NCBI GenBank assembly: GCA_000165345.1
Contig: CM000435.1
Location: forward strand, 960,001-1,024,000
Direction of reading: 5' to 3'
DNA length: 64,000 nucleotides
The notes under the pieces: model-generated
The model's database searches: none
Seen by the model: the letters and a program-made list of their open reading frames with translations, nothing else
Told to the model about the DNA's origin: nothing
Shown: piece by piece, positions 1 through 64,000 of the stretch
How positions within the stretch are numbered: position 1 is the first letter of the stretch
Layout of the letters: every line of letters begins with the position of its first letter
Program-made: the position numbers and the translations under genes

Positions 1-1239
1 GCAGAAAGCTTGGATGGATCCCAAACAACTAGGAATGGGTTCTTTGGGTTGCTCTCATCCAAAAACTGTCTTACCTTTGAGTGACTTCCTGGCATGTACA
101 ATCCAGCCTTCATGGTTCCAATTGGGCCTACGCCAGAAACCATTTTATCATGAATATATCCTCCCATTGGCCCCATTTGTCCACCCATTGAACCGAATGG
201 GCCTCCAATTGGACCTCCCATTGGACCCATTGGTCCCATTGGACCCATTTGGCCACCCATTGAACCTAATGGACCTCCCATTGGACCCATTGGACCCATT
301 GAACTACCTATTGGTCCTCCTATGGGGCCTCCCATTGGTCCCATTGAACCCATTGGTCCCATTGAACCCATTGGACCACCCATTGGTCCTGTCTGCGGCC
401 CCATTGGTCCCATTGGCCCGTAAACGTTTAATGAAACTTTTCCACCAGCGCCAGCATATCCCCTAATTCCGGATGGTCCCATCATTGATGGAGCACCGAA
501 TCTTGAAGCTTGAGAACCTAAAGCTGGAGGAATCCCTGGAACTCCTGCTGATAGTCTTACACTCTCCAACTCAGAGAATGTGGATGGATAAGGACCGAGC
601 ATTGTTTGAGCATCAAATTGAGTGGCTCTTGCCATCAAAGCCTTAATATGATCATCTGGTAATGGCCTTCCCTTCTCATCATGAGTTGGAATGGAAAGCT
701 TACCACCTGGATAATTCAACATATACTTCTCAGGATGGTAGTTTGGGCTGATTCTCAATGCATGAATCTCCTCTAAAGAGCCTTCTCTTGCTGAAAAGCC
801 TCTCTTCTTCAAAAATTGTAATCTAAGTCTTCCCTTAACTTTTGCTGAAACTTCTCCATCGGTTTGAACAACTACCTGATGTACCTTCTCATCCCATGCT
901 TCCTCAACTCCAGCTAAATTCAAGTCAGATGGAGCGAACAAAAGATTGTTAAAGTTGGCACGGTCTAGTCTGGGTAATGAAGGAGGGCTTGATGTTAGCT
1001 TAGAATCAAACATCTTCTTCTGCTCTTCAGCGAGCTTAATCTGAGCTGCAATCTCTGGATCTTTCATCATTCTATCGCTAACCTTAATACCACTAATAAT
1101 CTGTGGAGTTCTTGCAGAATCCATGATCTGCTTTTTAACCATACTTCTTGCAATGTTTCCACTTCTAGATAAATATCCTGCCCCAAGACATCCTCCTATC
1201 AATGCTAACTCAACCACTAAAATCAAAATATTTCTCATC
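1..1239 (-). CDS. Signal-peptide protein with Gly-Pro-Met (GPMG/SMG/PIG) tandem repeats. The N-terminal 413 codons are present; the C-terminus runs off the window start.
   Basis: ATG at 1239..1237 on the minus strand, followed by MRNILILVVELALIGGCLGAGYL (hydrophobic signal or anchor). The frame stays open through all 413 codons to position 1. The CCATTGGNCC repeats at about 14-420 encode roughly 35 units of PMG/SMG/PIG. The track's + ORF 14..466 is the mirror image of this gene. The gene is missing from the track because it is truncated. Confidence 0.6.
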
Positions 1240-1505
1240 TTTTATTTCTAAAAGCCTCAAATATATAATTTATTAAAGACAACTCTTCTTTGAATATATA
1301 TATATATCCTTCAATTATTCACTTCTCCTCTTATGAACCCTTATTTATGATCAAGTAAGTGTCCAATATTTTATCCTACCTTGAAAAACAAGGAATTATT
1401 ATTAGCTCTCACTCTCTCACTTTCAATCTCCTACTTATCTGCCTTTGTTGCACTGGGAAAAAAAATTCTACTCCTCATTAGATCCAGTAATATAAATTAA
1501 TAGAT

Positions 1506-1513
1506 GGCGCCAA
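1506..1513. promoter_or_regulatory. E2F-like GGCGCCAA box in the divergent promoter between 1239(-) and 2078(+). A second box, GTTCCCGCC, lies at 1858-1866.
   Basis: GC-rich octamer in AT-rich intergenic DNA. It is of the same class as the boxes upstream of most genes in this window. Confidence 0.4.
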
Positions 1514-62000: not shown

Positions 62001-63847
62001 AAGATATTATCCTGAATAGATCCTGTCTGAACCCATGGAATTTGAGCAACGTATGCTAATTTTCCTTTCTTAATAACTTGTCCACTAGATGGAGAGATTT
62101 CTCCAATGATTGCTGATAATAAGCCAGTTTTTCCACTTCCAATTGAACCAATAATAGCAACAATCTCTCCAGATTTTACTTCAAATGAGACATTCTTAAG
62201 CATAAGATTCCCATCTGGCCAATGAAGTCTAACATTTTGGAATTTAACATATCCTTTCATATTATTATATTTTTGAATTTCTTGATCTTGAATCTCAAAA
62301 ATCTTAGATCTAAGGAAATTTGGAGTCGATTTGGTAACATTATCAACTCTCTTTTGTTCTGAAATGACCAAAAAGTCTCTAATTCTATTACATGCCATAA
62401 TAATATCATGGAAAGAAGAGTAAGAAAAAGGGAAACAAGATAATACTGAGCTTAGAGTTTCAAATAAACCCTCAGCAAAAAATACAGTAGCTGGATCAAG
62501 CTTATTTCCCATTAAAACATATACTAATGAAGTAACTAATGTTGCTTGCATTGTAGTACTGTAAATTCCCATAGATAAAGCTCTAAACTTTCCTTGTTTA
62601 ACAAGGCTTTTGATTTCATTATTTCTACAATCAGTAATTTTCTTAGTAAAACATTCTTCCCAAGCATAAGATTTAATAATCTTCATGAAAGATAAACATT
62701 CACTTGTGTATCTTATTCTTTGATCTTGATAAATAAGATATGGCTTTCTTTCAAGAGCTCTAAAATGTAAAGCTGTAGCACTGATAAGCATATTAGCAAT
62801 AACTACAGAAATTCCAAATAAAGCAGAGATTCCAAGCTGTGAATAAAGACATAATGTCAGAGCAACCAATAGAAAAGTTGCAGAATAGAAAAGATGAGCA
62901 GATATGAGTCTACTTAATTTAAAGACATCGTTACCCATTAAGTTAACAAAGTTATGAGCAATTCCAGGATTATCAGAGCCTTGAATATTTTTAATTCTAG
63001 GATTAAAGGAACCATTAGACTGTTTTTTGTTTTGAGATGGCATATTAAATTCAAAAGAGTCCATTAGTAAAAGCTTCCTATACAAAACTCCAGAAACAAG
63101 ACACTTAGAATATCTTCCTAAGTTAGTTACTAAACGATATTCTTGTTGCTTTAACATAGGGAATAATATTGTTAGAAAAGTCATTAAAAAGACAAGATAC
63201 ATTCCTCTTTGTAAGATTTCAAGATTTATTTCTCCAGTATTGAATCCCAAATTTCGAACAAAATTAGTGAGATAAGAGGAATTTTCAGTATAAGTTGAGG
63301 TAGGATTCTGCATACATAATAAAAGCTTTCTTAAAACAATAGACTGAGCAAGCAAACAAGTATCTGCCAGAACAACGAGTGAGAAAATGATAAATAATTC
63401 CCATTTAAATGTTAGAATCAAAGTATAGATAAGTGAAGGTTTTTTTTGATCAGAGGAAGATTTTTTAGTTTGAGCAGATTCGATAGAATCAACCAATTTT
63501 GCAGTTTCCAAATCATTAGTACGTTTTTCCTTTCTTTCATTATCAGAAATAATATTGCACCTTTTAAGTTCTCTTTCCCAATATTTGGTGAAATCAGGAA
63601 GTTTAAAACTTGGAGTGTCATAATCTGGGAGGTCAAAAAAATCGTTGTATTCTAAGTTTGAGTTGTAAGCCTTATCCATAATCTTAGTAAACCAGGAAAA
63701 AGTTAACATTGACAACCAACTCGCGTTTTCTTCTGGAGTTACTCCAGGTGATTTGGATTCTGCTTCATCATACTTTCCAGAATTAGTGCCATAGTTGGGC
63801 TCCAAATCCAGTTTTACGTATCCTTTTTCATTTTTTTCTTTTTCCAT
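59069..63847 (-). CDS. ABC transporter, ABCC/MRP-type full transporter (TMD-NBD-TMD-NBD), 1592 aa
   Basis: NBD1 has Walker A GSIGSGKTGL, signature LSGGQRQRISLARAV and Walker B VYVLDDCLSAVD. NBD2 has GRTGAGKSSI, LSAGQKQLLCLARALL and VVLLDEATSSVD. Two six-helix TMDs are present. A low-complexity linker of about 250 aa lies between NBD1 and TMD2. Confidence 0.85.
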   Translation of the reverse strand: MEKEKNEKGYVKLDLEPNYGTNSGKYDEAESKSPGVTPEENASWLSMLTFSWFTKIMDKAYNSNLEYNDFFDLPDYDTPSFKLPDFTKYWERELKRCNIISDNERKEKRTNDLETAKLVDSIESAQTKKSSSDQKKPSLIYTLILTFKWELFIIFSLVVLADTCLLAQSIVLRKLLLCMQNPTSTYTENSSYLTNFVRNLGFNTGEINLEILQRGMYLVFLMTFLTILFPMLKQQEYRLVTNLGRYSKCLVSGVLYRKLLLMDSFEFNMPSQNKKQSNGSFNPRIKNIQGSDNPGIAHNFVNLMGNDVFKLSRLISAHLFYSATFLLVALTLCLYSQLGISALFGISVVIANMLISATALHFRALERKPYLIYQDQRIRYTSECLSFMKIIKSYAWEECFTKKITDCRNNEIKSLVKQGKFRALSMGIYSTTMQATLVTSLVYVLMGNKLDPATVFFAEGLFETLSSVLSCFPFSYSSFHDIIMACNRIRDFLVISEQKRVDNVTKSTPNFLRSKIFEIQDQEIQKYNNMKGYVKFQNVRLHWPDGNLMLKNVSFEVKSGEIVAIIGSIGSGKTGLLSAIIGEISPSSGQVIKKGKLAYVAQIPWVQTGSIQDNILFGTKMDPEWYDAVIKACALWMDFQILPDGDQTLIGEKGINLSGGQRQRISLARAVYQKSDVYVLDDCLSAVDSHVAAHIFKNCICGLLGEKCVILVTHKLDIIPNVDRVILFDAEKKKQLYVGNPMGLSRLPSFTLQNISFESLQSAEEDGFETEIEGRKPFYGKVFGNLDKPQPRSLPLRGFPSSLATDSDRDNEITNTHNVYNRPITAPKDCSPLGPDDSETGKIVDDVVAVDLFDELVTKTENSTPSTPRVPTQDLINNTISSYKLGKTSQKSNRKGGTCENNLEKGKNPKLEMNSNLQTISLNEENHVSPYLRANKVGFIKGRTASIRMSGEKLRSHYRKESDSHFSESSMDFLQSSSSDRLVSGGGLFNNKKRAEIIQEESIELGSVSKETYYNYFSEWGVLNMIGILVCHIISGFIFSRNMFWLANWTGRKKLLDSSEISVSTSSSSIWEPDVFIYILLIIFYILSHITSTLLVRNGGINASRAFHEKLLSRLRYTKLSFFESTPIGRILNRFTGDLTNLDDSLPRNIGDLLVATAKVIVITVSISKVVPKFLICIPVLAYLFFQVSKKYAPMLRQSERFAAIYAAPILSHTVDTIDGLTTIRAFNAQERFIKKMDDAIRVEAQIRYHAGTAYRWLFVRLEIMGCIAVFTAGTLGVISVAYDPTTAGMFGAAMTFALSVSSCLNFGTRVLGEIEGVMVGLERIRDYTVSTPLEAMPILDKHRPPRNWPYQGRIEFHDLELRYKPEMPLVLNSISCNIHPGEKVGVVGRTGAGKSSIFISILRLVEAERGCIKIDDIDISSIGTFDLRSRISIIPQDPIIFSGTIRFNLDPLQQYTDEEIYQALKGSHLDSYVSNLALGLYTVLESGGQILSAGQKQLLCLARALLRQSKVVLLDEATSSVDSHTDSLIQKTIRAEFHNSTILAVAHRVQTVLDYDKIMVLDSGKIVEFDHPNLLLSNPKSIFYSLVHGER

Positions 63848-64000
63848 ATTAGTCTTGGAATTTCTTGACTTTTTCCAGTTAATGATTGGCCTTTAGCCAG
63901 GTTCCCGGCTTTCCATTTTCAACCGCCTTTATCCGTCCTCATGTCTAGTATACACAAAAAAATTAAAGTGCATCTTTTTATGCTTTTTCTTCATTATTGG

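Follow-up and report, generated by a model that had tools for sequence, protein, structure and literature searches.

E2F-like GC boxes in the promoter-bearing spacers of a Cryptosporidium parvum chromosome 7 segment

The stretch of DNA analysed here (the window: 64,000 nucleotides (nt), assembly GCA_000165345.1, contig CM000435.1, positions 960,001 to 1,024,000 of the forward strand) is a segment of Cryptosporidium parvum chromosome 7 with a GC content of 33.5%. The subject of this analysis is a set of short GC-rich boxes in its intergenic spacers that resemble E2F sites. An earlier note on this DNA, made from the letters alone, had attributed it to Cryptosporidium, and the attribution is borne out by the translations of coronin, EF1-gamma, CDC14, NudC and Rab11b, all five of which match C. 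parvum Iowa II proteins exactly. Apart from these eukaryotic products, the window encodes ribosomal protein L6e, an RRM protein, a myosin with an RCC1 domain, a four-domain CAP/SCP protein, and MFS and ABC transporters. Gene models follow the NCBI annotation of C. parvum CP141124.1, in which the window spans about 1,001,000-1,065,000, with positions recalculated for the window; those of the proteins of 1633 and 836 amino acids (aa) came from the CDC14-centred locus. Twenty-four genes are annotated in total. Introns that a simple list of open reading frames (ORFs) overlooks are present in 3901-4993, 14226-16079, 31608-32503, 32977-33467, 33572-34298 and 41995-43360, and it is the 3' intron of Rab11b, not its start codon, that makes this model uncertain.

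Genes occupy 53,943 nt and intergenic DNA 10,057 nt (15.7% of the window), the latter being divided into 6 divergent, 11 tandem and 6 convergent spacers and one 5' spacer cut at the window end. The GC content of individual spacers ranges from 19 to 36%. When pooled, they have 27% GC, and the 80-85% AT previously given for the intergenic DNA is overstated compared to the 72.8% obtained. Searches of the whole window with Rfam (gathering thresholds) and ARAGORN gave no match, indicating that the large spacers hide no known RNA gene.

The boxes consist of 5-8 consecutive G/C bases that include a CG. The most frequent core is the palindrome GGCGCC, which is exact in 7 of 28 sites and occurs in addition inside longer runs. 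CCCGCC, GCCGCC(C), GCGCGCC, GGGCGGG and CGCGCC are the other cores, and GGGCGG lies within only about 4 of the 28 sites (44996, 49653, 55533 and, on the other strand, 41610). The core has a T-rich flank on one side and an A-rich flank on the other, so that the flanks are T-rich when read toward the core from either side: among 22 strong sites picked without any flank requirement, positions -3 to -1 are 52-70% T, compared to 37% in the background. In its full form the motif reads TTTGGCGCCAAA, with TTTCCCGCC and TTTGCCGCC as half forms. With a symmetric CG core and T-rich/A-rich flanks, the motif is, judged by its letters, of E2F-site shape.

Expected counts were obtained from dinucleotide-preserving shuffles of the whole window and of spacers and genes separately, the separate shuffling being the form that corrects for composition. 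In the whole-window shuffles, GGCGCC was observed 8 times versus 0.56 expected and TTSSCGCS 17 times versus 0.83 expected. When the two compartments were shuffled separately, all 8 copies of GGCGCC were found in spacers (0.09 expected) and none in genes (0.57 expected). The same pattern was displayed by SSCGCS on either strand, with 23 copies in spacers (1.1 expected; the highest value in 300 shuffles was 6) and none in genes (4.07 expected), and by TTTSSCGC, with 10 in spacers (0.30 expected) and none in genes (0.73 expected). The control hexamers of the same composition, GGGCCC, GCCGGC, CCGCGG, CGGCCG and CCCGGG, occur only 0-1 times each in spacers. Therefore, the signal is sequence-specific and does not reflect a general GC-island effect. 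All six strings quoted as examples in the earlier note are present, and every copy is intergenic.

A combined site definition was also applied, in which SSCGCS or TTSSCGS on either strand were merged into clusters. This gave 30 clusters, 28 of them intergenic and 2 genic, corresponding to a 75-fold ratio of density (binomial P ~ 1e-20); the 28 intergenic sites comprise 22 strong (S6) and 6 medium ones. Comparison of 6- to 8-mers between spacers and genes returned AT-rich words together with TGGCGC(C), the sole GC-rich one. Additionally, spacers have more CpG per base despite their lower GC content, with 139 in 10,057 nt compared to 528 in 53,943 nt of genes. G/C runs are themselves depleted in coding DNA, as SSSSSS was counted 20 times versus 52 expected and SSSSS 72 times versus 164 expected in dinucleotide shuffles. 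The zero genic count is thus in part a general property of coding sequence.

At least one box is present in 17 of the 18 promoter-bearing spacers, compared to about 2.2 expected from the summed shuffle probabilities of the individual spacers, in agreement with the view of the earlier note that such boxes stand at essentially every promoter. None of the 6 convergent 3'/3' spacers holds a box; these spacers total only 627 nt, in which about 1.9 boxes would be expected, and are underpowered when taken alone. Neither coding nor 3' regions thus reach the box density of the promoter-bearing spacers after correction for GC content. As a marker of promoter-bearing spacers and of transcription-unit polarity, the box works here because the convergent spacers hold none.

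By gene, 23 of 24 have a 5' spacer with a box, or 20 of 24 when boxes in divergent spacers are counted for the nearer gene only; the earlier note had counted at least 20 of about 25. Measured from the ATG, the median distance to the nearest box is 163 nt (interquartile range 100-236). The proposed interval of 40-300 nt upstream holds for 19 genes, and the full range is wider, from 39 to 684 nt. Several boxes form close pairs (32686/32698, 41571/41610 and 44980/44996), and divergent spacers often have one box by each gene, such as 1506/1862 and 54812/56275. By eye, asymmetric sites showed no clear preference for one orientation with respect to the gene they precede (about 7 versus 3-4). The boxes had also been expected to predict start sites where the first ATG is ambiguous. 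They are compatible with the annotated first ATG of Rab11b (ATG 34298, box at 121 nt) and of the RRM gene (ATG 49145, box at 191 nt). However, with a several-fold spread in spacing, from 39 to about 300 nt, a box cannot choose among neighbouring ATGs.

Conservation was assessed in the syntenic coronin-gene loci of C. meleagridis, C. ubiquitum, C. canis, C. felis and C. bovis and in the CAP-gene loci of C. meleagridis and C. canis. In 4 of the 5 other species the motif again keeps to the spacers, with for example 8-10 SSCGCS per ~4.5 kb of spacer versus 0-2 per ~17 kb of genes. The exception is the GC-richer C. felis, in which 10 spacer and 10 genic copies still amount to a density bias of about 3-fold. 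The orthologous convergent spacers of the five species are empty, save for one weak match in C. canis. Distances from box to ATG, which require no alignment, are stable: 85-125 nt for Rab11b and 195-266 nt for the myosin gene in 6 of 6 species, 61-71 nt for NudC in 5 of 6, and 100-102 nt for hyp344 in 3 of 3. The Rab11b spacer varies from 271 to 484 nt in length, and the distance from its box to the upstream stop codon (186-360 nt) is less conserved than that to the ATG.

Retention was scored when a C. parvum site had a site no more than 10 aligned columns away in the other species. All 20 sites compared were retained in C. meleagridis, and 17 of 20 in C. canis. C. ubiquitum kept 9 of 13, C. 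bovis 5 of 11 and C. felis 4 of 8, whereas random placement would give 0.4-1.8. Spacer identity to C. parvum decreases to 0.57 for C. canis and 0.48 for C. bovis. In the six-species alignments, column identity is 0.66 in boxes versus 0.58 in other spacer columns (P = 0.003), a modest difference because variant turnover and alignment drift blur it; retention and ATG distance are more informative than column identity. Four of the species have GGCGCC as the core at the myosin position, whereas C. ubiquitum has GGCGGGAAA and C. felis GGCGCGC, and the cores seen switching at one orthologous position comprise GGCGCC, GGCGGGAAA, GGCGCGC and CCCGCC. Such switching at a fixed position suggests selection for a degenerate binding specificity rather than for a fixed sequence. 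Taken across the species, this conservation shows the boxes to be, in all appearance, under purifying selection as functional sites. The individual boxes are listed in Table 1.

Table 1. Positions of the boxes in the window, their surroundings and their state in other species (strand given as '.').
Box	Position	Strand	Surroundings	Other species
GGCGCC	1506..1511	.	divergent spacer hyp1107(-)/MFS(+), 272 nt from ATG 1238	same position in C. meleagridis, C. canis
TTCCCGCCGG	1862..1869	.	214 nt upstream of MFS ATG 2078	kept in C. meleagridis, C. canis
GGCGCCAAT	3799..3804	.	98 nt upstream of hyp344 ATG 3901	100-102 nt from ATG in three species
GCGCCAAAA	5176..5180	.	223 nt upstream of CAP-domain gene ATG 5402	orthologous GGGCGCCAAAA in C. 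meleagridis, TTGGCGCC in C. canis
TTTCCCGCC	10524..10529	.	436 nt upstream of hyp343 ATG 10962; 125 nt past CAP stop	kept in three species
GGCGCCAAA	10857..10862	.	101 nt upstream of hyp343 ATG	
TTCCCGCCG	12052..12058	.	143 nt upstream of hyp594 ATG 12197	
GGCGGGC	25937..25943	.	119 nt upstream of hyp3242(-) ATG 25821	
palindromic TTGGCGCCAAA	31299..31304	.	238 nt upstream of myosin(-) ATG 31064; adjoined by conserved block GTGTGCATGAGCAC at 31279-31292	
ACCGCCAAA half-site	32686..32690	.	divergent spacer hyp224(-)/RNApolL(+)	ACCGCCA kept in 6/6 species
TTGCCGCCG	32698..32704	.	12 nt from 32686 box; 197 nt from hyp224 ATG 32503	RCCGCC in 6/6 species
TTTTGGCGGT	32920..32924	.	56 nt upstream of RNA_pol_L gene ATG 32977	
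palindromic TTGGCGCCAAA	34416..34421	.	121 nt upstream of Rab11b(-) ATG 34298	GGCGCC in 6/6 species
TTTGCCGCTAAA	35647..35651	.	66 nt upstream of NudC(-) ATG 35582; sole box of NudC/coronin divergent spacer	TGCCGCY in 5/6 species
TTTGGCGGT	38906..38910 (38903-38911)	.	39 nt upstream of Prp3C ATG 38868; metallophos/Prp3C spacer of 64 nt	
TTTGCGCGCCAAA	41571..41577	.	163 nt upstream of metallophos(-) ATG 41413	box at aligned position in 5/5 species
TTTGCCGCCCAAA	41610..41616	.	39 nt from 41571 box (pair)	second box 187-197 nt from ATG in C. meleagridis, C. ubiquitum, C. canis
weak GAGCGCC	44723..44727	.	129 nt upstream of EF1-gamma(-) ATG 44594	orthologous TTTGCGCGCC in C. ubiquitum, C. canis
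GGCGCGCG	44980..44987	.	within conserved block ACGACGTGTGCGCGTGGCGCGCGTCTAC (44965-44992), ~296 nt upstream of RPL6 ATG 45280	
TTGGGCGGCAA	44996..45002	.	279 nt upstream of RPL6 ATG	GGCGG aligned in 6/6 species; full GGGCGGS core in four
GTGGCGCCAC	46090..46095	.	466 nt upstream of CDC14 ATG 46559	C. parvum and C. meleagridis only
GTGGCGCCGG	46322..46329	.	234 nt upstream of CDC14 ATG, within 34-nt conserved block 46309-46342	4/4 species
GGCGCGCAAA	49333..49339	.	191 nt upstream of RRM(-) ATG 49145	
GGGCGGG	49653..49659	.	512 nt upstream of RRM ATG; 142 nt past hyp1633 stop	
TTTTCGCGCC	54812..54817	.	111 nt upstream of hyp1633(-) ATG 54703	
palindromic TTTGGGCGGGAAA	55533..55539	.	middle of 1669-nt divergent spacer, 835 nt from either ATG	
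AACCCGCC (CCCGCC)	55835..55840	.	535 nt upstream of hyp836 ATG; adjoins TGTGCATGCGC at 55810-55820	
TTGGCGCCAG	56275..56280	.	96 nt upstream of hyp836 ATG 56373	
weak TTCCCGGC	63904..63909	.	58 nt upstream of ABC-transporter(-) ATG 63847; spacer cut by window end	
weak AACCGCC	63921-63927	.	~76 nt upstream of ABC-transporter(-) ATG	

Motifs of this kind have been described in C. parvum before. Oberstaller 2013 reported the E2F family (motifs 3 and 4: TGGCGCCA; [C/G]GCGC[G/C]; GGCGGG) as the most over-represented upstream motif of the species, together with the presence of E2F and DP genes, and noted that Rb is reported absent from apicomplexans (PMC3734150). According to the citation given there, Bankier 2003 had found the motif over-represented in the non-coding DNA of chromosome 6 (PMC3734150), and Mullapudi 2007 described a CGCCAA-core motif upstream of some replication genes without using the term E2F. 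In sporozoite chromatin examined by the assay for transposase-accessible chromatin with sequencing (ATAC-seq), E2F was the top motif in 888 upstream peaks, over half of which were annotated as bidirectional, and it was present in 160 of the 201 spacers inside polycistrons and accompanied by a poly-T motif in open chromatin; the main text of this study names none of the cpbgf_70043-45 genes (Xiao 2025, 10.1101/2025.01.17.633476). The factors that have been named are cgd1_1560 and cgd6_1430 for E2F and cgd7_3650 and cgd8_1850 for DP (PMC12246861). The statement of the earlier note that an E2F/DP-like element is the dominant reported upstream motif is consistent with all three sources (PMC3734150, 10.1101/2025.01.17.633476, PMC12246861).

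The boxes of the window share with this published family the organism, the core ([C/G]GCGC[G/C], TGGCGCCA, GGCGGG), the position upstream of genes of all functional classes including those of ribosomal proteins, the short co-oriented spacers and the frequent bidirectional promoters, and no essential difference was seen. The features of the definition of Oberstaller, namely core, flanks, upstream over-representation after composition correction and evolutionary constraint, were all found here. The finding is therefore correct and already known, a local instance of a motif family published between 2003 and 2013, with nothing new in kind. Its sole increment is the positional conservation with variant turnover across six species, a report of which was not found in the searchable literature, although this is no proof of newness.

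Similarity also extends to the E2F/DP sites of animals and plants (TTTSSCGC), which have a symmetric CG core and one or more T-rich flanks, occur in either orientation, are promoter-proximal and stand singly or in close pairs. An E2F/DP site has been described as a 6-bp symmetric CG core with T-/A-rich flanks, TTTCCCGCC and TTTGGCGGG being the commonest in Arabidopsis (PMC3734150). Compared to those of animals and plants, palindromic GGCGCC is unusually frequent here. Moreover, animal and plant sites mark an Rb-controlled regulon for cell cycle and DNA replication, whereas the boxes of the window precede nearly every gene: the 23 of 24 genes concerned are unrelated in function and include RPL6, EF1-gamma, Rab11b, CAP, MFS and ABC, and do not form a canonical cell-cycle regulon under Rb. 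The boxes thus look like E2F sites that are used as general promoter elements, as the Cryptosporidium literature also says.

These results show an association with promoters, sequence specificity and purifying selection. From the resemblance of the motif, we infer E2F/DP as the putative binder, and activation rather than repression as the effect. The interpretation of the boxes (TTGGCGCCAA, TTTCCCGCC and variants) as E2F-type promoter cis-elements, with E2F/DP binding as the likeliest mechanism, is given a probability of about 0.75. According to this mechanism, each promoter-bearing spacer of the compact genome would hold one or a few boxes, the core of which would be bound by an E2F/DP winged-helix heterodimer. 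Once bound, the heterodimer would mark a nucleosome-depleted promoter region, or open one, at ~40-300 nt upstream of the ATG, and transcription would start from this region, in divergent spacers often both ways with gene pairs sharing a box. A structure of the E2F4-DP2-DNA complex was reportedly described by Zheng et al. in 1999, and Cryptosporidium is the only apicomplexan genus known to retain E2F/DP. The E2F/DP genes are located outside the window, although that of one DP (cgd7_3650) is on chromosome 7: no E2F_TDP domain was found in the window proteins scanned with Pfam, and the CAP orthologue cmbei_7004310 places the window near cgd7_43xx, away from cgd7_3650.

Functional promoter elements could also be recognised by another protein, either a Sp1/KLF-type C2H2 zinc finger or a GC-specific ApiAP2 domain. 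The few GGGCGG sites contain the Sp1 GC-box core, ubiquity at housekeeping promoters is closer to Sp1 than to classical E2F usage, and the assignment to E2F/DP was made by motif similarity. Vertebrate Sp1/KLF GC boxes are likewise GC-rich and are found upstream of housekeeping genes and in bidirectional promoters. Nevertheless, such a binder is considered unlikely. The majority of the cores are GGCGCC, CCCGCC and GCGCGCC with TT/AA flanks, which fit E2F (TTTSSCGC, TTTGGCGCCAAA) and are no Sp1 site (GGGCGG or GGGGCGGGG), and no CpG islands surround the boxes. The interchange of GGCGCC and GGCGGG at orthologous positions fits one specificity that covers both, as E2F/DP has, and the motifs obtained for C. 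parvum AP2 domains on protein-binding microarrays (TGCAT, G-box and GCACAC-type) differ and do not include the E2F motif (PMC3734150, PMC12246861). A purely structural role, in which GC islands set nucleosome-free regions or unit boundaries with no dedicated sequence-specific activator, would suit isolated GC clusters within spacers of 73% AT and the coincidence, in the literature, with ATAC-seq open chromatin beside a poly-T motif. It is rated as very unlikely, as GGCGCC occurs 8 times compared to 0-1 for hexamers of the same composition, the flanks are constrained, and the orthologous variants remain within one consensus.

It is most improbable that the boxes signal the 3' end or termination of the preceding gene, or that they are an artefact produced by composition or chance from CpG-containing words. 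Boxes in tandem spacers also lie downstream of a gene, and those at 10524 and 49653 are only 125-142 nt past a stop codon, as a termination signal might be. This is countered by the emptiness of the six convergent spacers and of nearly all their orthologues, by the presence of boxes in purely 5'/5' divergent spacers, and by the spacing of the Rab11b box, which varies less relative to the downstream ATG than to the upstream stop codon. As for an artefact, the dinucleotide shuffles never came near the observed counts.

Several observations weigh against E2F/DP-bound promoter elements. Coronin, the glycosyltransferase GT2 and EF1-gamma are without a strong box of their own, and the gene at 14226-16079 has no box. 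The boxes 55533 and 55835 are far from any ATG, 10524 and 49653 follow shortly after an upstream stop codon, and all positions were measured from the ATG and not from transcription start sites. Because boxes stand before nearly every gene, including RPL6, EF1-gamma, secreted proteins and transporters, their role would have to be broader than that of classical E2F. GC-rich boxes may partly anchor the alignments behind the retention test; the alignment-free distances from box to ATG agree with the picture given by retention. Furthermore, no electrophoretic mobility shift assay, protein-binding microarray, chromatin immunoprecipitation or CUT&RUN (cleavage under targets and release using nuclease) for Cryptosporidium E2F/DP was found in the searchable literature, and a 2025 review states that most regulatory components lack validation (PMC12246861).

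A wider proposal, which is tentative and has the odds against it, is that the E2F-type box is a near-universal promoter-defining element of the genus, E2F/DP having been recruited for promoter recognition in general or as a pioneer factor. If this were true, selection would have kept one positionally fixed box per unit or bidirectional pair for tens of millions of years while the spacers drifted near saturation. Transcription from the upstream unit would read through box-less genes such as 14226-16079, giving polycistrons, and the orphan boxes 55533 and 55835 would mark unannotated non-coding transcripts. For annotation, the value of the boxes is that they flag promoter spacers, orient units, and spot candidate polycistrons and unannotated transcripts. 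Well-conserved test cases are the Rab11b box 34416 in spacer 34299-34658, the myosin box 31299 in spacer 31065-31607 and the CDC14 block 46309-46342.

The only promoter-bearing spacer without a box of any grade is 13982-14225, between hyp594 and the 515-aa gene. Its orthologous spacers in C. meleagridis and C. canis (fetched loci L020 18563-18776 and L021 18580-18842) are also box-less. For the gene placed at 14510, the start of which the earlier note had expected a box to predict, this prediction fails, as there is no box in C. parvum, C. meleagridis or C. canis. The start of the 515-aa gene differs between two public annotations (14226 versus 14349). This gene may form a dicistron with 12197-13981, or may have another type of promoter.

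Two other spacers are unusual. Spacer 38869-38932 is only 64 nt long, from the metallophosphatase stop to the same-strand Prp3-C ATG, yet it holds TTTGGCGGT; its orthologues have TTTGGCGGCAAAT in C. ubiquitum and TTGGGCGGGAAC in C. canis. This box is reminiscent of the E2F motifs that C. parvum polycistrons are reported to have in their internal spacers. The divergent spacer 54704-56372 is unusually long (1669 nt, 22.6% GC) and contains four boxes. The two central ones, 535-835 nt from either ATG, are 55533 (TTTGGGCGGGAAA, adjoining CATGCACA) and 55835 (CCCGCC, adjoining TGTGCATGCGC). No ATG-initiated ORF of more than 47 aa was found in this spacer (the longest ORFs, of 80 aa, begin at TTG), nor any Rfam or tRNA match. 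A transcript missing from the annotation, possibly a non-coding one, may lie here, or else a distal promoter.

Conserved blocks other than E2F motifs adjoin several boxes. The block GTGTGCATGAGCAC (31279-31292) is near-invariant, with 0-4 mismatches over six species, and combines GCACAC-type and TGCATG-type AP2 motifs. ATCCCACTCAC (34400-34410) is identical in 3 of 6 species, ATCTAAAAAATG (41551-41562) is conserved in four species, and ACGACGTGTGCGCGTGGCGCGCGTCTAC (44965-44992) is largely kept in C. meleagridis, partly in C. ubiquitum and in none further. Upstream of CDC14, the 34-nt block GTAGACGTGACGTGGCGCCGGTATAGGCGATACC (46309-46342) is conserved in four species. These blocks are likely composite promoter elements. 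The AP2_1-like word TGCATG/CATGCA was counted 12 times in 10 kb of spacers and 20 times in 54 kb of genes, corresponding to a density about 3-fold higher in spacers, and both copies of TGCATGCA are intergenic. The spacer bias of these words indicates that E2F boxes are not the only promoter-associated word.

Apart from the boxes, a few gene calls are of note. The partial ORF at 1-1238 (-) has an unusually high GC content of 44.7% and no Pfam domain, and represents the N-terminal part of a ~1107-aa protein kept in C. meleagridis and C. canis; 2 of the 5 weak SSCGC cores located in genes fall within it. Between the myosin promoter box and hyp224, an 86-aa ORF beginning with ATG is found at 31320-31580 (-), with 23.8% GC. 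It is called as a gene in raw-read (Logan) assemblies but left unannotated in the C. parvum genomes at NCBI, and probably does not represent a gene. At the C. felis locus (L018 12972-18405), the glycosyltransferase gene is called twice in tandem, as two 410-aa copies, and different, shorter gene calls are found at the metallophosphatase position. This may represent a local rearrangement, a duplication, or an artefact of assembly or annotation.

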